Source: Catajapyx aquilonaris
Lineage: Eukaryota
Direction: 5' to 3'
DNA: 49,508 nucleotides
Assembly (NCBI GenBank): GCA_000934665.2
Contig: JYFJ02000732.1
Span: 62,001 to 111,508, forward strand
Below the pieces are notes generated by a model that did not search any database, was not told the origin of the DNA, and was given only the letters and a program-made list of their open reading frames with translations. This document shows positions 1,405-49,402 of this stretch, piece after piece. The first letter of the stretch is position 1. Each line of letters starts with the position of its first letter. The translations under genes and the position numbers were made by a program.

Positions 1405-1817
1405 CTGAAAGAAGACAAGGGAGGCTCACAACATGTTGATCATGTTCAATGGGGAGAAACTTCCCATTTTGCAGAGTGGGAAATCAGAACCAGCCACAAC
1501 ACAAAATTCACATTGTGGCTATTTCAAAACGACCATGACCAGAAATTTCCATCTGTGGTCATTACGCATAGCCGACAATGCATTGTAGTCATTCTCTTCA
1601 CAAAATGAACATTTTAGAGGTATGTCATCCTGGTCCCAAGTACTCGATCGCGAATCAGGATAATGGTTCTCAAAAAATGTAGAAAGTGGACACCATTGCC
1701 CAAAATCTTTTGCGTCCCCCACAATTGTGTTCAGGTACCCCAGTTTGAAAACCACTGCCCTAATCAAACCTGACTCATGTTACTGGCAAACAATTCATTA
1801 ATGGAGAAGAAGCCTAC

Positions 1818-2124
1818 CAGTGTTAGCGGCATCATTCTGCTGGGTTGCCCTGCTTGAACTGCTTGATGTAGGGACACTATCTGCATTGACGTCATGGTCT
1901 TGCTGACTCCTTGCTTCCAAAACCGATTTCACCAGAGAGGCGTGCTTCGATTCCAAGTGACTCCTGAGGTTCGCGACAGAAGAATCGAAGGACACGTCTT
2001 CCTTGCATATGTTGCACTTGGCACGTTTGTTTGGCAACTGGGTGTAGTGATTCCAGATGGGACTTCTTTTCATCCGCTTCCTTGAAGGTTCTTCACTCGC
2101 ACTTGTAGATTCAATGTCCTGGCC
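1818..2124 (-). CDS. Exon of gene 1: BED-type zinc finger
   Basis: RSPIWNHY...AKCNICKEDVSFDSSVANLRSHLESKH fits the BED pattern W-x-[HY]...CxxC...NL-x-x-H-L-x3-H. Phase-0 acceptor aaacag at 2125, phase-1 donor g|gtaggc at 1818/1817. Confidence 0.85.
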
Positions 2125-2871
2125 CTGTTTGGTAAGTCAAAAGGTAATTTTAATGTCCCACAAAGAGTCATATTCTGCTATTCTCAACCCTAGCTTGAAT
2201 TTTGTCCCATTGCTACTTTATGCACCAGAGCAAGGTAGATCTTCAGGATGATTTTCTTCCCTTTTTATTAACTGTTACATTTAAAAAATAGTTTTTCCAT
2301 TCCCACTTCATGTACTTCTTTTTTTTAAGTACAGTAACTAGAAAATAATTACAGAGTACACAATTCGGAAACATATCAACAGCATGTAAAGTCCTTAGTG
2401 TTTTCCCAATGTTAAAGCCACGTGTTGATCAGCGATGTCGCAGTGATGATGTCACCAAATGATGAGACCATTTGTTTGGGGCGATAATACAAGGTGAAGG
2501 GAAACTCGCTGACAATTGCCAGGTAAACTTATAGTACTCGCAAAACTAATATAGGGATGTGCAATTAGTTTTTGGCTCCGTTGCATACCGTGCAAAGAAA
2601 TAAAAAAACTATGACAAATGTGCTACGTGTACAAGCCCTCTACTATCCATTTTTTACATACTGGCCCCTATGTTTGACAGCGCATATCACATGAACGGAT
2701 AATTCAAAATAATCATAGGACTGTGTCGTCATAATCTCTTTACGGGGTAGCCTTCGATGACCAGGCACACCCACCTGACCATCTCATATGACAACAATGA
2801 AACAAATAGGAATAATTGGGCAAGGCCCTCAAAATTTGACGGCTCTCTCTTCAAGATCAAGAGACACTCAC

Positions 2872-2931
2872 CTGTGCAGAAGATGCCTCATCATTACTGG
2901 ACTCACTGGGGCATTCATTTTCTGATGTGCA
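2872..2931 (-). CDS. 60-nt symmetric linker exon of gene 1 (CTSENECPSESSNDEASSAQ)
   Basis: tttttccag| acceptor and cag|gtgagt donor, phase 0-0, open frame. Confidence 0.6.
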
Positions 2932-3003
2932 CTGGAAAAATAGATGCATTAGGGGACCTGCACGCTAAGAAATATACGGTCGGGTCTCCTGAAACATGCC
3001 TAC

Positions 3004-3318
3004 CTCCAATTTCGGAACAGCGTCGGGCTTTAATACCCGCCTCTTCTGATCAGGTCTGCAGGGAAATAGTGACTGCTTCTCAAAGTGAGCAATGCAAACC
3101 CGATGATGCGACTTTGGCTCATAGGTTGGTGGTAAATTCAGAGACGAGAGCCATTGTCGCATCAATTCGGGCTGTCCGCAGGGAAATGTGAAAAAAATGT
3201 CACATGGTTGGTCGCTTATTTTGTAACGGTGCTGACAAACTACACAAAAGCGACCCCTATATGCACCTATACTGGAACCTCCCTGCTGATCCATGCTACC
3301 ACCACGATCCATGCCCTG
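3004..3318 (-). CDS. Exon of gene 1: THAP (C2CH) DNA-binding domain
   Basis: CVVC...FFTFP...RQWL...RVCIAHF...LKPDAVP carries the THAP signature and AVP box. Phase-0 acceptor ttccag at 3319, phase-0 donor gag|gtaggc. Confidence 0.88.
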
Positions 3319-3889
3319 CTGGAACAAGGTGAAGATATAGCACGTGTTTTTCTGGGGAAGTGCTAAGATAATGTTAACAGATGTTGTGATGGCCAACGGA
3401 GCGGCCAGCTGATAGCAGTCGACGTCAATCCCCCACTTTGATCCCTCACCCTGGGGTTACCGTTCCACGTAGCAAAAAACGGATTGCACCATCGGATTCA
3501 TGAATTTTTACCCTATTTTTAGAGACCAACTTGTTTTTGGAGTGGAGTGTCCCCTTTAAAGAGTAGAGGGACGGATGGTAAAATACGAGGTAAAGTGCAT
3601 GGGTGTCGTACCCGGATTCTTACTCTGAGGGGATTAGATCGCCTATTACACATGGACGACATGTTAGGGGACCAAGGACCTCGTGCTGACAGTATTGCCG
3701 GAACTTTGATGGCCCCCGTATGCATTAACTATGCAACAGAGCCCAAAACTAATTGCACATCCCTGTATTAGTTTTACGAGTACTATCAGTCTACGTGGCG
3801 ATTGTCCGTGAGTTTCCCTTCACCCTGTATACTTGTTTACTTTCGATGTGATTGTTGCACCATCGCTGGTCATATGTAGCTTAACTTAC

Positions 3890-4120
3890 ATAATTTGTGC
3901 ATTCCTGAGGGGCTGCCAAGGGGTCAACAGTAGCATCAGTGGCTGCAGGCAAGACGCACAGCGGCTCTTCATCTGGCGGTTCCTCCTTAACCATGGCCCG
4001 TACGGATGAAGGGCCACTAAATGTCGACAGAGCTTCCTCCTTGAGTGCCACTCGCCAAGTTTCCTCCGTCGTGATCGCCTCCTCTTCTACTTTGACTTCC
4101 CCTTGAAGCGTGGCTGACAT
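3890..4120 (-). CDS. First coding exon of gene 1: acidic psiKxE/W/DPL module
   Basis: MSATLQGEVKVEEEAITTEETWRVALKEE...VKEE...VDPLAAPQECTNY. Acceptor tttcag|ggccATG, phase-0 donor tat|gtaagt. Confidence 0.8.
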
Positions 4121-4260
4121 GGCCCTGAAATGGAAGCGCCGATGACAGTGCAACGTACGTGGATGTGTTTGTGGAGCGAGAACCCCGTTGAAACGAGGCT
4201 GGAACTCACCAGAAGGACTCGACCGCAACCGACGCCAACACTTCTTCTTCACGACTGATG

Positions 4261-4345
4261 GGCCGCCATCTTGGATCAATACAGCTGGGAACGCGGGCGC
4301 ATTCCCGTCGCTGGCCATCCGTTCCTTTGTCCGAACCGCGATGGC
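4261..4345 (-). promoter_or_regulatory. Family core promoter copy (gene 1)
   Basis: + strand GCCGCCATCTT, GGGCGCATTCCC, GTTCCTTTGTCC. Exon-1 donor GTGAGT at 4209-4204. Confidence 0.65.
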
Positions 4346-8937: not shown

Positions 8938-11011
8938 CAGTATAACTTCTATAAGTCGAATCTCCATGGGACCGGAAAAAAACCTTCGAGTTATAGAAGA
9001 TTCGAGTTAGAGAAGTTTGAAATTTTTAAAGCACATAACTCTATAAGGAAGCCTACCTTTATGTCCAGAGACGAAAGGTGTTCAAAACTTCTGAATAACA
9101 TACTGTCACTAATACACTACTAATGTTCCTCATTGCTTCGTCGTAAAAAAAAAAACTCCGTAACGGCCATTTATTGCTTAGTCTGCGATTGACTCTCACT
9201 CTGAATAAATGATTCAATAGTCACAATTGAATCGAACACTTCTCTTGGAACGTCGGATCGCGATTCCAGCCACACACGGAGACTTGACACTATTCTGTTA
9301 GCTTCTCTCACTGTCGGGGGCACTGTCTGTGGTTCAGGGTCATCGTCGGAGTCGTCATGTAAATCTTCGCCTTCAGGCTCTTTTTTCTGCGCCACTCTGC
9401 GAAGAATATCTTCTTCCATGGCGTGTGATGCAACTGTAACTCCACTGTCAATGTTGGCATACACATCAAACGTGACCTCGTCAGGTACGACCAAATAATC
9501 GCGCACTCGTTCCCAGGATTCGTCATTTTCGTAGCAACTATCTTCATTTTCTATCTGTTGATCACCTTCCCTAATGAAGCCAGCTTTATGGAAGCAGTTG
9601 ATTAGAGTCGATGTCTGGACTTCGTTCCATGCTGCTGCGATATCTCGGCAGCAATCCAAAAGGGAAATAGTGGGTGCACTGCTGGCACCTTCATCCAAAG
9701 CTTGTATGATCCGCTGAATTATTCTTCTTCGGTACTTGTGCTTCAGGTTCTTAATGATTCCCTGATCCAAGGGCTGCAGCTTGGACGTAGCATTCGGAGG
9801 TAAAAACACGACCTTGATGGCCTTCAACACTACTGACGTTACTTTTGGATGGGCAGGGCAATTGTCGACAAAAAGCAAAATTTGTCGCCTTTCAGACGCA
9901 AATTTTTCGTCGAGACTTACCAGCCACTCCTCGTAAATCTCCGAAGTTATCCATGCCTTCTTATTGGTTTTGTACGTCAAAGGCAGAGATTTAAAGTTCT
10001 TAAAGCAGCGCGGATTTTTCGCCTTGCCAATTAGAAGAAGCGGAAGTTTTTCGGTACCTGCCATGTTGGATCCCACCATGATGGTAACCCGCTCTTTGCT
10101 ATGCTTTCCACCGTAGCACAGGTCATCTTTGAAAGCCAATGTTTTGTCAGGAAGGCATTTAAAAAATAAACCCGTTTCACCAGCGTTGAAAATGTCACTG
10201 TCACTGTATCCACGCAATAAATCTGGTAACACTTGCGATCTCCATTCTTCGCAGTCACTCTGATTCACATCTGCACTTTCCCCACAAGCCTTTTTGAAGA
10301 CGATGTTATTTCTCGTTTTGAACTTGTCCAGCCACCCGACACTTGCTTGAAAATCGTTGTGCCCAAGTTGTTTGGCAAAGTTTTCAGCTTTTTCACGCAG
10401 AAGAGGGCCAGACAATCGAATGTTTTTCTTCCTGAGTGTCATCATCCATATCAATATTGCTTCTTCCACTTCGGGATATCTCACCTCTTTCATGCGCTTT
10501 CTTGATGACTCGCCTGTTGACTCCACTGCTTCTAGTATTGCTTCTCGGTTCTTCAAAATTGATGAGAGTGTGCTGGCAGGTATTCCGAATGCTGCAGCAA
10601 CATCCTTCTTTTTTCCGCTACCCCTCTCCACCTCCCGTATTAATTTGGCCTTGTCTTGCAGGCTCAGGGTCTTTAGCTTGCGCTTCGCCATCGACATCTA
10701 CTGACAGGCAAGAGCCCAGCCACTGTGGTGGAGAATACTCACTGAAATTTTGAACACAAAAGCTTCAACGACCAATATCTGCACCCAAACCAATGACGCA
10801 CATGGCATAACCATACCGTTTCGTTTAAGACGGCCAGGAAAGCAAGGATTACACGTGGCGAGTTACTCGGCGCAGTTGGGGGTTATGCTTAAATTCGAGT
10901 TAGGGAAGTTTATTTCCTATTCTTTTACATTGTGACCAACCAAGCTCATCATTTTCTTCGACTTATAGGGAACTTCCACTTAGGGAAGTTCGACTTATAG
11001 AAGTTTTACTG
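8938..11011 (-). mobile_element. Full-length Tigger/pogo DNA transposon in an intron of gene 2
   Basis: 23-bp TIRs CAGTA[T/A]AACTTCTATAAGTCGAA with 1 mismatch. TA at 8936-8937 and 11012-11013. Subterminal TTCGA[C/G]TTA repeats at both ends. Confidence 0.92.
9171..10697 (-). CDS. Tigger/pogo (TIGD4/TIGD6-like) transposase, 508 aa: CENP-B HTHs plus DDE_1 domain, first catalytic Asp replaced by Gly
   Basis: FGIPASTLSSIL; ASVGWLDKFKTRN; IFNAGETGLFF (canonical NADETGL); LFVDNCPAH; LQPLDQGII. Confidence 0.92.
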   Translation of the reverse strand: MSMAKRKLKTLSLQDKAKLIREVERGSGKKKDVAAAFGIPASTLSSILKNREAILEAVESTGESSRKRMKEVRYPEVEEAILIWMMTLRKKNIRLSGPLLREKAENFAKQLGHNDFQASVGWLDKFKTRNNIVFKKACGESADVNQSDCEEWRSQVLPDLLRGYSDSDIFNAGETGLFFKCLPDKTLAFKDDLCYGGKHSKERVTIMVGSNMAGTEKLPLLLIGKAKNPRCFKNFKSLPLTYKTNKKAWITSEIYEEWLVSLDEKFASERRQILLFVDNCPAHPKVTSVVLKAIKVVFLPPNATSKLQPLDQGIIKNLKHKYRRRIIQRIIQALDEGASSAPTISLLDCCRDIAAAWNEVQTSTLINCFHKAGFIREGDQQIENEDSCYENDESWERVRDYLVVPDEVTFDVYANIDSGVTVASHAMEEDILRRVAQKKEPEGEDLHDDSDDDPEPQTVPPTVREANRIVSSLRVWLESRSDVPREVFDSIVTIESFIQSESQSQTKQ

Positions 11012-12341: not shown

Positions 12342-14249
12342 TTACAGGCGTACAATGGGTACTTTCGGGAGAATCAGTACTTGTCTCTCTAAAGCGTCTA
12401 CTCTGGCCGCCAACTGCCTGGCATCTCTCTCCCTCTGCTCCTCCAGTCGTAGGCGCTTCATCTCCACCTCCAGCCTCTTCTCTTCCATGTGAAAGCGGCC
12501 CTTCTCCAACTGCAGCCTCTGCTCTTCCGTACGAAGGCGGCCTCTCTCCACCTCCAGCCTCTCCCTCTCCAGCACTACCAACAGCTGGGGGCCGTAGTCA
12601 GTATTTGAAGCCCTTTGATTTGTTAGGAGGAGGCTCTGCTGCAACTTATTCACTGAGGAGGCGAGAGGGAATATGTCACCAAGATTACCCATCAGTGCAA
12701 ACAGTTGTTTCTTACCTGCAGCAAAAGATGCTTCTGGAGATGGAGTGGACACTGACTGGGCACCACAGATGGCAGCTTCCCCATGACCACTGGTGGTAGC
12801 TTCCACTTCTTCTTCTTCTTCTTCTTCTTCTGAAGTAACATCTAGTGTCACTTCAGGCACAACTGTTGCATGGGCAGTCTGTGACATAGGCCAGCGTGCC
12901 GGATTCTCCCTGGCTCGATCCACGGCTTCCTGTGCGGTTGTGTCACGCCACTCCGCTCTGGCTCCTTCTGAAGACTCCCTTCTGATTAGCTGGAGGACCT
13001 TCTTCTCCAAATTGGTTAGCTTCGGTACGGGAGGTGCTCTCTCGGCGCCAAGTTTTTGCAGCATTACGACATTGGCCTTCAGCTTGCACTGCAAAATTCA
13101 AACAATTAGTTGAATAATATCCTGTCTCCTGACTGAGTAATATCATTTGCATATACAATTCCTTTAAAATGTGATCTCCCCCTAACAACCTGCGTACCTC
13201 TCTGCGCAGGTACTTCCATTTTTTCCTGGCCTCCTCCCCAGTCCGGTCATTGATTTCAATGGCATTCACAACTTTGGCCACTTCCTCCCATGCGGCCTTC
13301 CTTTCCTGATGGGGATTTCGTACTTCAAAATCCCACGTCCCTTCCCTCAGGTTCTTCCTGGTCTCTAGCTGCCGGACCAGAACCTCCACCTCACGCTCCG
13401 TCCAATTTGGACGCCGAATCTTCTTTGCTGGACATTTCTCCTCCACTATTTGGAACCTTCCCCGAACCAAAATTGCAGTTAAATAAAAATAATGAGGAGC
13501 AGATGCGACAGTAATAGTTTACCTAACATACCAATCAGAATACACATTCACAATACCCATTACTTCAATTTCCATTTTGAAAGCAAATAATGCAAATTCT
13601 CTTCTTGTTAATGAGGAAAAACATGCAGGCATGTCATCACTAATTGCCTTCATTGAATTCAACAAGATTACTTAAAATAACTGCTGGTATTTCTACTGGA
13701 CTTCTGTAATGGGTTTCCAAACATATACCTTTTCTGTCCCTCCTGACTAATCCCAGCATGTTGTACTTGGCCCTCCTGCATACTTTCAACAAGATCTTCC
13801 TCTTGTGGCACCTGGAAACATAAATTCAGTATCAGTAGATGAAAGTAATAATACACCAGCTTACAATGGATTGTTCCATCGATTCTGCTTATGCCTGCAA
13901 CCAGTTTCAGGTAATCATAAGCAACATTGTAGCAACATGTCCTTATTTTAATCCATGTTGTCACGTTCAGTGATTTTGGCCATTGCGTCTATAGTTTCAG
14001 ACGTACCATACTTGCGTCTCCGCCAGCAATTGACAAGGGGTCGTCCTCATCATCTGCATGCGGAATGGCTCCCACCCACTCCTCCTCCTCCAACTTCACC
14101 TCGTCCGCATTAACGGCCATGCTAATGACGGTCGAGTAATCAACGGCGCAGTATGGCGCCTGTCCCTCCTTCATTGCCAGCTCCCAAGCACCTTCATCAG
14201 TCACCAAATCATCGTATGCCCTTTTGTTGGCAGCCACTTCCATCGACAT
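12342..14249 (-). CDS. Gene 3: acidic module + Myb/SANT-like DNA-binding domain + coiled coil (MSANTD4/NAIF1-like)
   Basis: Phase-compatible exons 14249-14007, 13811-13729, 13456-13198, 13088-12342. RRPNWTEREVEVL...AAWEEVAKVVNA...RTGEEARKKWKYLRR; C-terminal ERERLEVE...EEKRLEVE heptads. Confidence 0.85.
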
Positions 14250-26379: not shown

Positions 26380-28377
26380 TTATTTACCTTTAAATGATAG
26401 TTGATCTGTTCTGCCTATACTGGAGAAAAAAAGTTCAGCCATGAAAATTGCGGGACCAAGTAGACATGAAAATACAAGCCAGAAATAAATAGTGCCTCTC
26501 ATCTGGATAATGTTCAATGACATCGATGTCTCGTACAAAACGTTGTTTTTTCGAGAATTATTTACTCCCATCATCAGACACGCATGTTCAAACATCCTTC
26601 TCAATTTGTCCAGAATACCCGAATCCCTGATGTAAAGTATAAACCTGCTAACTATGGGTGATATTAAGCTGTACTTCTCGGTCAGTATACCTGCTAGTAC
26701 TAGGATGTCACTTTCTGGTGCAATCTTGGTGGCCAAATTCCCCGACTTATCCGCGAACTGGTAGCTTCCAGCTGTCAGAACATCTTGGACAGACACGCAG
26801 GAGTGGTCTGTGTCTATGGCTGCCAAGACACAAGTGTTCAAGTCGATATGGTCCACCATATCTTTGGCTATTGAAGCAAATGAATCCAGATTGGTCAGGA
26901 CACTGCTCATATAGGGCTTCATGAAAAGAACCGTTCCCCACGTCCATTTCGGCCATTTCTGGCTCTCCGAAAAGTATGTGGGCAAATCCTCCAATTCAGG
27001 GCTGGCCAAAAACGCGAAGTAAAGAGCCTCGTAACCGCAAATTATCACTAAGGAATACGCCCACCAGAAAGAGATGAATATTCGGGCAGGTTGGCTGCTC
27101 GGAACCTGGTTTGGATTTTCCTCGATCAGGGTGGAAAATAGATATCTCAAGGAATAGAGGAAAAGAGAAGGAGGAGGACGAGTAGTAGTGGAGAAGGGCG
27201 GGCTTAGAAGGGAACCACTTTTTAGTATTTGACATAAAATCAGGCTGCTAATTGTACTTGCCACAAATATAAGTGCCCACATGCCAGGAGTGTACGGCTG
27301 AATGATCGATTTCCAGGAGTAGCTTATCCGTGGAGATCGAGTTATGAAGGTGAAAACGGCAAACCCATCCGGATGAGGGATGTCAGCTACCAAGGTCATT
27401 TCGTCGCGTAACATGCTTACACCAATAACTGCATTTTTCTTAACGATCATTCCCGTAGTACCGGAGTAATTCCCGTCGGGCAAAGGGACGTCGGGAATTT
27501 CCCCATCTTCCAACACCGGGGAATCCATTTTCCAGTCAAAATTCAGAGCCTCACTGATCGGTAACATTGTTGCAACATACGTAAACATGGGCAACTGACT
27601 ATCCAGAATATATTTTAACTCACTCTTGTCTAGCTCAAACGGCAACGATCCGTTCAGAAACCTATTGTGTAGATTCCTGGAATAATCCGGGAACAACTCT
27701 TCAAGAGTCTGTTGCTGATGATCCGCACCGTACGAACCAGCAGTGTTGACCACAGCCGGATGACCTCCGTGGCAGAAGTGACAGTTGCTGAGCAGCGAGA
27801 GTGTCCTGGTGTGGTTGTGGTAGATCATCCCGAGGGAGAAGAGCATCCTCTCTGCGTCCGGGTGCAAGAGGACGTCCCTCACCACACTGGATGATGGTCC
27901 ATCAGATGAAGGCGTCCAGAAGATGAACCTGTCCCTGTTGGTCTTGATCCGGACGATGGAGGCCAGGTGTCGGAGGAAGGGCCTGAGGTGGTGGCGGGGC
28001 TGGCCCCGGGGCAGGGCCAAGAGGAACAGCCCGCAGTTGTGGAGGTGCCTGGCCCTGGGTCTCTCCAGCCAAGAGAACCAGTACTCAGGTCTGTTGGGGG
28101 TGGACTGAGGCAGGGATGGTGACCACCGGATGGACAGCACAGGAGATGAAGAGGACTGGACCTGTTTCAGGAGGGGGGTCATCTGATGGTCAAATGAGGA
28201 GTCCTGACCTGTGGCCAGCACCAGGAGGCAGTCAGGGTCCTTCTTCTGGATCCGGAGCACCAAGGATGCCACCAGAGAGGCCTCTTCTTCCTCCGCTGGA
28301 TTGATCCGCATTCCACTCACTCGCAACTCTCCTTCACCCAAACACAAGAGAACAAGGGCCAACAGTGCTCGATCCAT
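26380..28377 (-). CDS. Intronless divergent ionotropic receptor (IR/iGluR-related chemoreceptor)
   Basis: Likely start MDRALLALVLLCL (signal-peptide-like). IIQPYTPGMWALI (M1), RIFISFWWAYSLVIICGY..LASP (M2), IRDSGILDKL, SLNIIQMRGTIYFW (M3). Confidence 0.85.
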   Translation of the reverse strand: MDRALLALVLLCLGEGELRVSGMRINPAEEEEASLVASLVLRIQKKDPDCLLVLATGQDSSFDHQMTPLLKQVQSSSSPVLSIRWSPSLPQSTPNRPEYWFSWLERPRARHLHNCGLFLLALPRGQPRHHLRPFLRHLASIVRIKTNRDRFIFWTPSSDGPSSSVVRDVLLHPDAERMLFSLGMIYHNHTRTLSLLSNCHFCHGGHPAVVNTAGSYGADHQQQTLEELFPDYSRNLHNRFLNGSLPFELDKSELKYILDSQLPMFTYVATMLPISEALNFDWKMDSPVLEDGEIPDVPLPDGNYSGTTGMIVKKNAVIGVSMLRDEMTLVADIPHPDGFAVFTFITRSPRISYSWKSIIQPYTPGMWALIFVASTISSLILCQILKSGSLLSPPFSTTTRPPPSLFLYSLRYLFSTLIEENPNQVPSSQPARIFISFWWAYSLVIICGYEALYFAFLASPELEDLPTYFSESQKWPKWTWGTVLFMKPYMSSVLTNLDSFASIAKDMVDHIDLNTCVLAAIDTDHSCVSVQDVLTAGSYQFADKSGNLATKIAPESDILVLAGILTEKYSLISPIVSRFILYIRDSGILDKLRRMFEHACLMMGVNNSRKNNVLYETSMSLNIIQMRGTIYFWLVFSCLLGPAIFMAELFFSSIGRTDQLSFKGK

Positions 28378-30146
28378 CTCTCCGGACTGCCACACTGTTC
28401 GATTTCTGCCCCATTTATATACCTCGACTCCAATCGCCAAAAGTTGACCAAATAACCATCAGTCATCACATTTTAACTCTCATATGCAGCTCTCTGATAC
28501 GTTGCATTTAGTTTTCCGAGTGCTACAAGTCGTGCGATATTGCACGACGCCTAATAATTAGCAATCGCTAAAATATTTCACTCCGACAGATTACATGGGC
28601 AACGAATGTTGCATGCTGTCATGTCAACTGATGTCTTGACAATAGGGGGCTGTCATTTTTGTTTCGCTTGACAACACTGGAGATGAATTGTAGGTATTAC
28701 GGATGTCAATTGCAGTGTATTTTTCCTAAAGTGCCTGTAAGTGAGCACTTTGAGTAATATTTCATTCATGAGCCATCGTTATTTTCTTACATAACTGTAA
28801 GGTTCGAATGAAAATGGCCCTTGAACCCTTCATGGATATAGTGAAGTAAATGTGTGAAATGCTGAGACAAAAATCAATTGAATGGTCCAACAGTGACTAT
28901 GATCTCAAATATGTCAGATTGAAAAAAACTAATCATATCGTTATGTGCAACATACCATGAAAAGGACGAGAACATAAGCAAATGGAAGCAGAGCATGAAG
29001 TAGATTAACTGCAACTAATGAGACATCTCAATTATTTGATTCGATTGCATGATCACAATAGCAAATAAAAAACAAAGGATACATTAGGCTTATATAATGT
29101 TACAAGTTAGTATTGTTAGCAGAAAAGACGACCACCTTTTTCTGGATTTATTTTTGACCACTCAACAGTACTACTGTCATCACATTTTGATTTAAGAAAA
29201 ACATCATTACGCGCCTTCCTCATCTTCATCCCAGAATGGGTTATGTTGTGCACCACAAAGCGACGATATCTTCCTGCCGAAGACTATTGCGGCAGTAGTG
29301 GCATGGGAAGCCTCCACAAGCCACATCAGCATGTCGGGGGAATCCATCCTAAAAAAGTGAAGCCCTGGAAATGATCAAATCTGGCATGACTTCTCCTGAG
29401 CAATGGTGCCTCTGCTACTTCCAAAAACTGGTCCAGAGCAGCCAAAAGGGACTGGAGCTGCATTGAGAAGTGCACACCAGCCCAAAACGTGCCGAGACGC
29501 TATGAAATATGCCACACCCAGTGGCGGATCTGCTTTGAAACTATAATGAAGCTGGGCGCACACATGGCCGCATCAACCTCTTCCTCCCCGCCAGCTGCAC
29601 CCAAAACGAATTGGTGCAAAATCGGAGCCTTTTCATTGTTATTAAACCCAAGCAGGAAGAAGAGCCTGTTTATTACACCTGCGGTACATAAACAAACAGC
29701 GTACATAACGTTTACTCAGCATAAATGTCAGGTCATCATGGTGATCCCCAAGAGAGAAGTTGGTCCTGTGAATATCTTGGCCGATGCTCCAGAGTGTGGC
29801 ATTCCAGTGTTCTAAGTGGTTTCTCCTCCAGTGAACGCCTTCAATGAGTCGGTACTCCCAATATTCAGATTATGGTACGGTGACAGGGCAATAACATACA
29901 AATGGCAGACGAAGTGAATGTGTGAGAAACACTGCATGCAAACCTTGGGAAAAATTGATAGTTTTTGACATTATGCAATTTATCGGGCACATCACTGGAC
30001 AGACTCCGGGTTGTTATGCCAGTATTTCTGGATACTTTAAACGAATGTATCACTAAACTATTTCTGACTTAGATGACAATTACACGGCTTATCTGCTGAA
30101 CTAGTCATCACTTGGTGTGTCAACGTGAGCTGCACTTTAATTAGTG

Positions 30147-39039: not shown

Positions 39040-39200
39040 GCGGCCATCTTTGATTTCTTCTTTTTTTTATTTTTTTTATGCAAATGAGGGTGCGTTCCTA
39101 CCCCCACGCCAGGGTGGAAGGATGGCCTTATGCGCTATTCATAGCGATAGTCGCTGCTACTGCTAAAGCACTGCGACTTCCTTCAATAACGCTATTCGCA
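39040..39200 (-). promoter_or_regulatory. Family core promoter copy with octamer (gene 9)
   Basis: GCGGCCATCTT, ATGCAAAT at 39078-39085 next to GAGGGTGCGTTCC, TCGCTGCTAC, AACGCTATT. Confidence 0.7.
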
Positions 39201-40752
39201 ACTTTTAATGAACAATTATTATTAAAAACTGGGTGGTACCATTTTTTTTGTAAATTATTTCACTCCTGTCTTTGGGTTTGTGTGGCCCATTCAGGTTCAT
39301 TACTGAAATTAACGCCCTGCTCGACAAACGTAGTGGGAGACATTTTTACCGGACCTCTCAGAAATTGACTGTCCAAGGTGTAATCATATTTATTTCAGTT
39401 GTTAACTGTCACATCATCGTTAACTTTGGTGTCCTCCTAACTCAATTTGTTATGATTCATAAATATCCATTCTAAAGCTCAGATAATCTTAATGGAGATT
39501 TTTTAATCACATTTTGTTTATTACCCCCACCACTGCACTCTTTTGGGGTGGGTTAACTGTATATTGGAGAAGGGAAGGTACTGTACAAGGGGAAAGATTC
39601 TCCAGTCGTGTAATATATGGTACCAAATAAATTGACATGATGCGCCAGCTGTGAAAATATCACAAAAGCAATAGGAATTATTCAAACACGCCATTTAAAA
39701 TAAAACAGTCAAAAACATGTGGAATCAGTATTTTCAATGCATCGAAATTCTACACAACACTGGCGTTTGTAACAGGATGCTTATCTGTTATAACCATAAT
39801 GATTGACATTGAATTGTCTAAGCGTCACATCATCATATGACATCACATCATTTGCCTTAAGGCAAATATGGAATGATGTGATGTGACCAATATTGCGTGT
39901 CCTTTTCTGTGCATTGGAATGTGTCTTTTCATGTTACTTCCCTGATTAAATTTATTCTGGTAACATTTGCAAAGAAGTGGTTTCAACCCAGTGCGCCAGT
40001 GCTGTGTGGTCGCATGTGATTCTTCAAATGACTGCGATGAAACTTATTTAGTCAAATTTCACGACTAAATGGTGAGACAGCAGTGTGCTGTCACATACAT
40101 CGTATGACCTTGCATATTACTTGCATGATAAATCTTTATCTTGCATATAAGGCAACTGTATGGTGCATCTTATGCGCGCACATTCCCAGAGGACATTTCC
40201 AAACTACTGCATATGAAGACCTCGGGGGGAGAAACGATCAAGGTCCACCTCAGGTCAAACAGAGATAATCTTATTTTAAATTTCGAATGCCCACAAGGCT
40301 CCATTGTAAATCCCACTTTCGAGGCCTTCCATTGTGACTATTATCATTACTCCACAACGACCTAACTATCATATTCTACACTAGTGAAACTATCTTCTGC
40401 GACATGTGTGACTATCTGCCGACCTGTAAGGGCGCTTTATTTGTGGCAAAAAAATAGATTGTAAATCATTTCAGTACGGCCCTCGTAACTCATTTTTGAC
40501 AAAAAGTGGATCTTGATGATCATTCTATCCCTGAGGTCTTCATATGGGTTACTGATATCCTTCTGGCAAATTTCACAGCCAAGAAGTCTCTCTCTTGTAC
40601 ATGACTTGTACGTACATGTGACTGATCAAATTACTCCCATGACAAAAAATGGTCACAAATAAATGGCCTCTCTCCTGTTTCAATTCACAAGAATTTTCCA
40701 ATTGTGTGGATTACAATATTCTATTACATACCTCACAAACATATGGTTTGTC

Positions 40753-41901: not shown

Positions 41902-42183
41902 GGTCCTGCAAAACACAAGGGTGGAGGTCATGTAGTCATGTCAAGTACCACACAAATCAAAGGGGCAGCTGAAGAGGAGGGACACTTTCTCTCCGAACCT
42001 TTCCTCTTCTTCTTCCCTCCTCACCAGTCCACCTCCCTCATCCAGAGTCCCGATGAGGCCCGGAAAGGGGAAGGGGGAAGAGTCCCTCACCCTCCGGGTT
42101 CCAATCGAACTGATTCCACGGAATCAGACGGGTCCAAACGAGTTCCATTGGCCAAAAAAGGAGAATCAACAGAATATTCTCAG

Positions 42184-42330
42184 GCGGCCATCTTTTTTAT
42201 GCAAATGAGGGTGCGTTCCTGTCGCCGCACCACAGTGGAAGGACGGGCTTATGCGCTATCACTCTACTCCAGAATCACCGCTATCTCTGCAGAACCGCTA
42301 CTTCCTCCAACAACGCTATTCGCAAATTGT
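42184..42330 (-). promoter_or_regulatory. Family core promoter copy with octamer (gene 10)
   Basis: GCGGCCATCTT, ATGCAAAT at 42199-42206, GGGTGCGTTCC, AACCGCTAC. Confidence 0.7.
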
Positions 42331-42673
42331 TACTGTACTTGTCTGCAATACCCTATGCGTACTAATACATAATTAGTGCAAGGAAAAAAACAACAACTAA
42401 ATAATCTGAGAGTTTTCAACTTTAAAAAATTACACAAAAAATCTGCTCCCTTTGAAATAATAATCTCTTATTATAAAGCAGAGTTTGTAATTAAGTGTTA
42501 TGCACCACATTACTGAGCACAACATGCACATAGTTTAAATATTATCAATCACCCAAGCCAGGCTGAAGAACCATTGTAAATTAAATTGCAAACTGCGTTT
42601 GAAAAATCTTACGTTATCTTGCAGTACATAAAAATTATGCTTGCATTGTTTTGAAATAATATCACCACAACAT

Positions 42674-47600: not shown

Positions 47601-48683
47601 ATCCGGCAACTTTTTTAAAGACACACCTTTTTGCACGTTTGACAGCAAATATGAATTCTAAGGTGTCGAAAACCTATATCTTCATACCTGATTCATACCA
47701 GGCATGTCAAAAGTAGATCTAGCATGATAACTTCAACAAGTTTTCTTAATATACACACGGGTTTCCGTGGGCCTGTTTGTGACATGCCTGGTACGAATCG
47801 AGTATGAAAAGATAGGTTTTCGACACCTTAGAATTGATATTTGCCGTCAAAAATGCAAAAAGGTGCGTCCTTAAAAAAGTTTGCGGATTAAGGTTCACTT
47901 CCCTACCTGTGATAAGCCCGAGGAGGATAGATTAGGGAGGGTGTGACTTATCTTACCCCATTCTGGGCAGGGGGGTCAAAGACCAGGAGCCCTGGGGCCT
48001 TTCTTCGCACCCACCCGGACCAAAGGTGATAAGTGAGGAACAGAAAGAGTTGACCCCCTGAAGAAGCCACGCCTCTGTAGGAGGGACAAAGGTTCCCTTC
48101 TTGGTTCGGTCTAGTCGCGCCAGAGGGAAACTAATCTCAACACTTCCCTGGTCCATCAGAGGTTCAGTCACGGCAAAGGACTTGTCACATGCTCTCAGTT
48201 ATTAGCTCTTGCTTACAGTTGAAATAGGCAAACATCATGCAGATGCTGCAAGGGGAACAATTTACGTACAGTGGTTGAATACGTGTAGCAGGAGTGTGGA
48301 TATTTCTATAATATCTTTCCATGCCCAGGTGTTTGATTAGGAATGATGATTTGATGTGGCTTTGGTGTAAAATTATACTGCAAATTCAGAAGATTGCATA
48401 CCCTACTAGTCCTTCCAGAACCTCCTGCCAACGGGTCGTCTTCCTCATCACCCTCTCTGGGCATGTCCACCACCATCTCCTCCTCCACCTCCTCCTCCTC
48501 TGCTTCTTCCTTCTTGATCTCAAGGAGAGTGTCTTCTATGAGAGTGGAGCCACCATCAAAGGAACAAGGGGTCTCCTCCTTCACCCTTAGCCTCCAACTC
48601 TCCTCGTCCACTGTGATGTCCTCCTCATCTTCCTCCTCCTCCTTCACTTCCCCTACCTTCTTCATCCTCAGGATGAAAGACAT
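44692..48683 (-). CDS. Gene 11: acidic module + 6 C2H2 zinc fingers, with a 3.1-kb insertion-rich intron
   Basis: Exons 48683-48402 and 45303-44692, phase 0 (agg|gtatgc ... ttccag|). Fingers 3-4 and 5-6 are a tandem duplication. Confidence 0.82.
45890..45991. repeat. Near-perfect hairpin of about 100 nt
   Basis: GAGCCATTGCCTTACCCCAGGGCCTGAG...TTTTCC, 6-nt loop, then GGAAAA...CTCAGGCCCTGGGGTAATAAGGCAATGGCTC. Confidence 0.9.
46882..48211. mobile_element. Non-autonomous TIR element, P-superfamily-like
   Basis: Perfect 21-bp TIRs CAAGAGCTAATAACTGAGAGC at 46882-46902 and 48191-48211. 7-bp TSD CTTACAG at 46875-46881 and 48212-48218. Confidence 0.82.
47329..47729. repeat. About 160-bp inverted repeat inside the P-like element
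   Basis: Arms 47329-47489 and 47569-47729. The spacer has a duplicated CCCTTATTCCTAATCTACCCTCCTTGGG. A third diverged arm copy lies at about 47780-47890. Confidence 0.9.
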
Positions 48684-48725
48684 GGTCCTGCAAAACACAA
48701 TCGAAACGGAATAAAATAAATCTCA

Positions 48726-48880
48726 GGCGGCCATCTTCCTCTTCTTTTCTCTTTCTTTTTTATGCAAATGAGGGTGCGTTCCTGTCGCCACACCAGTGGG
48801 TGGAAGGACGGGCTTATGCGCTATTAATGCAGATCGCTGCTACTGCTAAAGCACTGCGACTTTCTCCAATAACGCTATTT
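48726..48880 (-). promoter_or_regulatory. Family core promoter copy with octamer (gene 11)
   Basis: GCGGCCATCTT, ATGCAAAT at 48762-48769, GGGTGCGTTCC, TCGCTGCTAC, AACGCTATT. Confidence 0.7.
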
Positions 48881-49402
48881 ATTACCGTAGAATGTAGATC
48901 AATGTTACAAAACATTAATTTTAATGTTTGTGTCACGGCTTTCTGATGTGGCATTTTCTGTGCACTTTTCAATGACGGGCTTTAACGTTAAAAACCCTTA
49001 CACATTAGCCTAATTAAATTGACTTTTTAAATATCGTAGCTCATTGGACTGAGGTTAAACAATATCATCACTTTAAAAAAAATATATATTTAACAATAAC
49101 AGCTTCAAATGTTGTACACCAAAGTGCTGCAGTTTCTGAAAATGTCCACAATAAGCCATGAACATTTTAAAATTCTGTGGTGCAATTTTTGTAATTAATT
49201 TTAACACACTCTTTGGGATTGTGTGGCCCTTCAGCTTCATTACTGAAATTAATGCCCTGCTAAGTAACAGAAAAATGTAGTGGCAGACAATTTTACCAGA
49301 CCTCACAGAAATTCACTGTCCAATAAGGTGTAATCATATTTATTTCAGTCATTAACTGTCAAATCATCTTCAACGTTGGTGTCCTCCTCACTCGGAGCGG
49401 GT

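Follow-up and report, generated by a model that had tools for sequence, protein, structure and literature searches.

Three nested DNA transposons in an acidic-exon gene of Catajapyx aquilonaris and a plausible young capture of a Kolobok THAP exon

The stretch of Catajapyx aquilonaris DNA analysed here (49,508 nucleotides, called the window; positions refer to it unless another locus is named) forms the end of contig C290, and the genome searched comprises 286 Mb in 20,583 contigs. The window carries a row of minus-strand genes, in each of which an acidic exon opens the coding sequence and a DNA-binding part comes next; besides C2H2 arrays, these parts include by Pfam Myb/SANT-like, CENP-B/DDE_1, BED and THAP domains. 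Transposon-type domains lie just downstream of acidic exons in a long CENP-B/Tc5/DDE_1 frame (9171-10697, minus strand) and in a Myb/SANT-like frame (12342-13518, minus strand). A conserved non-coding block with TATGCAAATGAG, possibly a shared promoter, lies just upstream of three acidic exons (39054-39368, 42114-42365 and 48677-48946), and a single frame of 692 codons with a weak Lig_chan match (26380-28458, minus strand; E 2e-6) stands among the zinc-finger genes. The gene of interest has the following exons.

4210 to 4275, minus strand: likely promoter-proximal non-coding first exon, of putative exon status; CAAGATGGCG motif at 4273, donor GTGAGT near 4209
3890 to 4124, minus strand: acidic first coding exon; ATG at 4120, 77 codons, 231 nt, phase-0 donor
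3004 to 3318, minus strand: THAP exon; 315 nt, 105 codons, phase 0-0; its Kolobok ATG (3294) and its donor (GTAGGC) are both native
2872 to 2931, minus strand: 60-nt exon, phase 0-0; natively exon 2 of a Kolobok transposase gene
1798 to 2124, minus strand: BED zinc-finger exon; ends in a stop at 1798-1800 or, by a phase-1 donor after 1818, continues into further exons

The acidic exon has 59 related matches genome-wide and no match in Pfam, while the THAP exon matches THAP (E 3e-11, 44.3 bits) and the BED exon matches zf-BED (E 3e-11), its nearest paralogue being only 42% identical. The CAAGATGGCG motif, which we take to be a YY1-type promoter motif, also stands ahead of the acidic exons at loci L106 and L110. 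All exon junctions are phase 0 with AG/GT sites, the splice sites being read from the sequence, and a direct splice from 3890 to 2124 is in frame irrespective of what lies between. Both the path that includes the THAP and 60-nt exons and the path that skips them translate without a stop ahead of the BED exon's own, giving 310 and 185 residues, respectively, if the BED exon ends at that stop. In protein databases no homologue of the THAP exon was found among longer or near-length proteins; the best 150 matches to the BED exon were at most 42% identical, and a gene model for the locus was not found.

The BED exon is probably not the last of the gene, as judged from the phase-1 donor after 1818, which fits acceptors at 1404 and 514 and leads into a frame resembling an integrase (E 7e-5 to Pfam rve, below the cut-off). 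Skipping would then yield BED together with further domains, and the original prediction of a switch to BED only was too simple in this respect. A phase-1 splice chain may link the BED exon (window 1818-1 and L062 9999-7181, minus strand) to an integrase-like frame ending in L062. Farther downstream lie a 472-codon frame and a short C-terminal frame, which to us look like a hAT transposase; BED may be the first exon of the hAT itself, the integrase element having inserted behind it.

The intron between the acidic exon (donor after 3890) and the BED exon (from 2124) holds the THAP and 60-nt exons within layers of transposon sequence, the outer of which are as follows.

2412 to 2489, no strand assigned: left half of the outer palindromic MITE-C; TTAA at 2412-2415; 78-81% identical to five places on four other contigs
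2490 to 2587, plus strand: left terminal inverted repeat (TIR) of MITE-A; about 17 further bases up to the family TTAA are missing
3556 to 3827, plus strand: MITE-A rightward of its internal TTAA (at about family position 121), through the right TIR; 246 of 272 aligned bases match the consensus
3830 to 3884, no strand assigned: right half of the outer MITE-C; ends in TTAA 3881-3884, 5 nt into the intron

The inverted repeat runs over 2487-2587 and 3730-3830 with 89% identity, the element proper being 2490-3827 with TA at 2488-2489 and 3828-3829. Its 98-bp repeats are the left (2490-2587) and right (3730-3827) ends of one 448-bp MITE-A copy. The genome search for MITE-A gave 1402 first-look candidates, 40 of which were scored; among the best 29 other loci, 21 were two-ended at about 400-455 bp, 6 were enlarged (about 680-1240 bp) and 2 were one-ended. 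The consensus and the arm comparison were drawn from 19 of these 29 non-self loci, omitting the six enlarged and two one-ended copies and loci L025 and L029; TA and CAGGGTG ends are present in most of the 19, and the family is presumably Tc1/mariner-type. The left arm is 96% identical to the left-end consensus and 93% to the right-end consensus, the left-arm identity being inflated since the loci were picked by left-arm likeness; the right arm is 96% identical to the right-end consensus and 91% to the left-end consensus. Identity between the two arms (0.89) compares with 0.88 within ordinary copies (s.d. 0.03, range 0.82-0.93, 19 copies).

MITE-C copies are bounded by TTAA with AG ends, and the flanks carry the motifs GATCAGCGATG at 2427 and CATCGCTGGTC at 3861. 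In a genome-wide search the right flank alone finds only itself; as a continuation of the left flank, it extends the alignment in all four intact MITE-C copies by a gain of 23-25, which was matched by 1, 1, 4 and 0 of 500 random flanks. The structure is thus one MITE-A insertion at TA within MITE-C, and the proposed nesting in an older palindromic MITE was thereby upheld. TA ends alone are insufficient to tell one insertion from two; two independent MITE-A insertions, the alternative raised against the original prediction, were ruled out by arms that are of left type and right type in the correct order and by flanks that rejoin. A MITE-C copy elsewhere (L070, 1289-1615) contains an internal 64-bp unit repeated four times.

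Inside MITE-A lie the two exons described above and the following further segments.

3431 to 3555, minus strand: 5' TIR of a Kolobok element; TTAA at 3556-3559, AG terminus; 84-91% identical to the ends of many TTAA-flanked copies
3319 to 3430, minus strand: shortened Kolobok 5' untranslated region; ends in the acceptor TTCCAG (3324-3319)
2588 to 2853, no strand assigned: unassigned filler of 266 bp; holds the end of another MITE, 39-43 bp (2637-2678), and a repeat fragment of 66 bp (2727-2792)

On the minus strand AGGGGACACT directly follows TTAA 3556-3559, and the likeness to a Kolobok terminus that had been suspected from it was borne out by the family TIRs; the coordinates, inverted repeats, TA ends, phase 0-0 exons, flank motifs and TTAA terminus were likewise found as originally described. 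The THAP exon has 75 genome matches including itself. A Kolobok TIR lies near 25 of the best 29 of its 74 non-self matches, the set analysed here, and the 60-nt exon region is matched by BLAST in 7 of these 29. The copy closest to that of the window, L061/L076, is bounded by a TIR and a TTAA on either side, and its THAP frame contains a stop; the window THAP exon is 90% identical in nucleotides to TIR-bounded L061 over 230 bases, and in the alignment of the 5' region with L061 about 100 bases are lost in the window, where the tract is more T-rich.

The same THAP exon heads the gene of L118 (1324-7879, G000:C4650), a near-complete, TTAA-bounded Kolobok of 6.5 kb, which agrees with the Kolobok origin of THAP that had been put forward. 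It begins with a TIR, the THAP exon, the GTAGGC donor and a 72-nt intron, after which come several 60-nt exons in tandem, a transposase frame and a frame on the opposite strand; the repeated unit is the intron plus the 60-nt exon, and an inserted 560-bp TA-MITE is also present. The transposase frame matches the Mutator-like profile PF20700 (E 2e-13) and the opposite-strand frame matches P2RX7_C/KolX (23.7 bits against a cut-off of 23.5), both assignments, DDE and KolX, being made with general Pfam profiles. Homology of the window to L118 spans 3559 to about 2854, ending 17 bases past the donor of the 60-nt exon, and both exons and three of the four splice sites are on this ground plainly native. 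The THAP and 60-nt exons and the 72-nt intron that parts them are therefore the opening of the Kolobok transposase gene itself and not captured host DNA.

The available text of PMC9587614 describes Kolobok Kol0 as having a TTAA target, RR/YY ends and a KolX that resembles the P2X7 ballast, and that of PMC6004289 ascribes to Kolobok a DDE transposase, THAP, H2CH and T2-MITEs. By the traits given there (TTAA, RR/YY ends, THAP, DDE and KolX) the family is a Kol0-type Kolobok. The window copy itself has no second TIR, DDE or KolX, being a one-ended 5' fragment. The filler at 2588-2853 matches none of the Kolobok copies compared and is single-copy apart from its two short fragments; locus L128 likewise has no tie to the Kolobok copies compared.

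The internal TTAA of MITE-A carries Kolobok-type MITEs at four other loci (L033, L034, L037 and L039) with three different inserts, and is thus a recurrent target. That these composites are copies of each other was considered and rejected, since the inserts differ except in L034 and L037 (95% identical) and the differences that the copies have in common fit a subfamily. Together with L097, in which two Kolobok ends meet on one TTAA near 1174, these loci suggest that Kolobok-type MITEs prefer targets like their own ends. A Kolobok THAP copy with its 5' TIR is also found just downstream of a frameshifted acidic-exon/zinc-finger gene (L091, 2065-1300, G000:C1026).

The composition of the interior bears on the Pack-like element proposed originally. 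TIRs and a TA target do enclose a coding fragment, yet the closest relative of that fragment is a Kolobok copy bounded by TIRs, and its exons and intron are laid out as in the transposase gene, so that a true Pack element with a captured fragment of a host THAP gene is extremely improbable. Pack-TYPE interiors derive from host chromosomes according to the available text of PMC6379663, and the structure in the window is accordingly one of nesting, the interior being the start of another transposon's own gene inserted at a recurrent TTAA. Nor does MITE-A travel with the family: MITE-A repeats surround other THAP copies in 0 of 49 stretches, the genome searches having scored the best candidates only.

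The last count also weighs against delivery as a unit, by which a MITE-A::Kolobok composite would have formed and been trimmed elsewhere before its MITE-A ends moved it into the intron. Both ends and TA are present as this would require, and the decayed repeat fragments in the filler suggest an older history; against it, the composite has no second copy, the filler is single-copy save for the two short fragments, and the other composites hold different inserts, their common differences fitting a MITE-A subfamily. We consider such delivery very unlikely.

The intron holds three nested DNA transposons, MITE-C, MITE-A and Kolobok. MITE-A entered a TA of MITE-C, and a THAP-bearing Kolobok entered the internal TTAA of MITE-A in the sense direction of the host gene. 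A deletion, still a postulate because the filler is unexplained, would have removed the 3' part of the Kolobok (DDE, KolX and the 3' TIR) with about 17 bases of MITE-A. What survives is the start of the transposase gene: coding exon 1, intron 1 and exon 2, with the splice sites that belong to them. With the AG upstream of the Kolobok reading frame brought into register by small indels, the acidic exon would splice onto THAP, and the native phase-0 donors would lead on to BED. The MITE arms would be a by-product of the nesting; their pairing may lower inclusion, and a selected switch is not required. On these grounds it is somewhat probable that the locus encodes a young host-transposase fusion in which exonisation has made THAP an optional internal cassette.

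The acceptor at 3319 is also transposon-borne: its AG is found in 15 of 29 other copies, while the adjacent motif occurs without it in 8 and is missing from 6. In none of the 15 AG-bearing free copies is there an open phase-0 reading into THAP, the frame being wrong in 10 and interrupted by stops in 5, and the window copy is open; an indel would give the frame by chance in one case of three, and the 15 free copies represent only about three lineages. The family motif GGCATATC appears as GGCATGGATC in the window copy only, a unique 2-base insertion; with this insertion and a 15-base gap relative to L061, the acceptor stands 24 nt from the native ATG.

The alternative is a neutral fossil, in which the nest is always removed with the intron and the in-frame acceptor and open THAP frame are products of chance. 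Secondary inserts are frequent in MITE-A (6 of the 29 top copies are enlarged), its TTAA is a recurrent target, and a stable stem around both exons could hide them entirely. Open THAP frames are moreover common: most free copies are without stops (24 of the 34 top THAP rows), so that an open frame is weak evidence of use. The unique insertion that yields phase 0, where 0 of 15 free copies have it, speaks against a fossil, as do four intact internal splice sites with homology that ends just beyond the last donor. The same is true of an open in-frame path in all three copies that lie directly behind an acidic exon. We regard the fossil as rather doubtful.

Pairwise substitution rates were also compared. 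The window THAP against L076 gave a dN/dS of 0.16 (76 codons; Sd 12.5/50.1, Nd 8.5/177.9, P=1e-4), a value that is not branch-specific and spans divergence before the insertion. Distant transposon pairs gave 0.34-0.38, and much of the low window value therefore predates the insertion, as selection acting on active transposon lineages could bring about. A decay of about 4% per copy since insertion would predict about 14 replacements, against the 8.5 and one stop seen, a difference that is only suggestive.

The two other copies behind an acidic exon are at L110 and L106, where the exon lies directly upstream of THAP. In L110 (8582-6805, G000:C404) a TIR-less Kolobok THAP exon stands in phase 0-0 between acidic and C2H2 exons; in L106 (9322-5990 and 5254-3768, G000:C4572) the acidic exon is followed by a host-like stretch fused in frame to THAP and by a 63-nt exon, with further Kolobok exons and a cut transposase after THAP. 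In the paralogue next to the L106 gene, this exon start is joined to another long frame, which has no Pfam match. The L110 and L106 THAPs form a clade separate from the window copy (bootstrap 100), and THAP was thus recruited at least twice; against their nearest relatives they show dN/dS values of 0.91-1.16, with no sign of constraint.

The original prediction also held that pairing of the repeats in pre-mRNA could skip both exons. When 2100-3920 was folded as pre-mRNA, the arms were nearly fully paired (92.6 expected arm-arm pairs), the predicted arm duplex reached -149.8 kcal/mol and the MITE-C halves lengthened the stem toward the upstream donor. The arms begin about 62 nt past that donor and leave about 365 nt to the BED acceptor, the loop between them being 1142 nt; any element with 98-bp TIRs would fold likewise. 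In this model arm pairing may bias splicing toward skipping.

A structure-controlled switch would go further: with THAP exonised, arm pairing would set the ratio of THAP-plus to THAP-minus forms, perhaps with a circular by-product. It is compatible with the fusion, of which it is a refinement. The predicted duplex encloses both exons, the frame is kept on skipping, and inverted Alu pairs in primates act likewise (available text of PMC10901737 and PMC13019027). Against this, arm identity equals the family background and thus gives no sign of selection on pairing, and each arm is closer to its own side's consensus, which argues against homogenisation. The two other acidic-THAP genes are without such arms, and transcription reaches the THAP acceptor about 730 nt ahead of the second arm, so that the acceptor may be committed first. 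We judge the switch unlikely. In its fullest form, in which a single nested insertion would have given both an in-frame Kolobok THAP cassette and, as looping MITE arms, its own off-switch while the old protein was kept, the proposal is quite unlikely; were it true, the THAP form could be tried at low level or under regulation, and a TTAA hot spot in an abundant MITE would offer a repeatable route of exon birth in a family of acidic-exon transcription factors.

The locus is a well-resolved transposon nest and plausibly a young capture of a Kolobok THAP by the acidic-exon gene family. If spliced, it would be an invertebrate-type parallel to KRAB-transposase capture, young enough for its donor family, its acceptor and the indel that set the frame to be legible still; if unspliced, it is an ordinary transposon nest. 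It also offers, on a small scale, a natural experiment on whether exons that lie between the ends of one MITE are skipped under the control of those ends. The ingredients (Kolobok THAP capture, nested MITEs and loop-out skipping) are each known, and a literature search that covered few subscription journals found no paper combining the three.

Several known systems are close, compared here with the available text of the sources. The family shares with Kol0 and the T2-MITEs the TTAA target, RR...YY ends, an N-terminal THAP and many short MITE derivatives, and its relative L118 adds the DDE frame and the KolX-like P2X7-ballast frame. The window copy differs as a one-ended 5' fragment within another MITE, and the Catajapyx family differs from the Kol0 described in that its gene has introns and its second exon is short and repeated. 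In the Xenopus domestications of PMC6004289 the transposase reading frame is kept entire, whereas here THAP would be an internal cassette of a host gene. Pack-MULE and Pack-CACTA elements (PMC6379663) likewise have TIRs around coding sequence without a transposase of their own; in contrast to Pack-TYPE elements, the interior here is mostly the MITE's own plus another transposon, and has no second copy. Inverted repeats in flanking introns can form a stem around exons here as in the skipping of TBXT exon 6 by inverted Alu elements (PMC10901737, PMC13019027), but the arms are two ends of one DNA-transposon MITE with 98-bp arms rather than two retroelements, they predate the exons, and any effect of theirs on splicing is hypothetical.

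P element/Kolobok transposons account for 21.3% of tetrapod host-transposase fusions in the available text of bioRxiv 10.1101/2020.05.07.082677, which describes the KRABINER route as an intronic insertion, a transposon acceptor and a frame-setting indel. In contrast to fusions of the KRABINER type, the head here is an acidic exon without a Pfam match and not KRAB, what would be captured is a phase 0-0 cassette, internal to the gene and with the transposon's own donors, inside unrelated MITE arms, and the case is a prediction from sequence. With KRABINER, SETMAR and PGBD3-CSB it nevertheless shares the intronic insertion, a transposon acceptor just upstream of the reading frame and a small frame-setting indel; and, as in fusions of the KRABINER type, a DNA-binding domain would have been captured by a head exon of a zinc-finger family, one head being reused.
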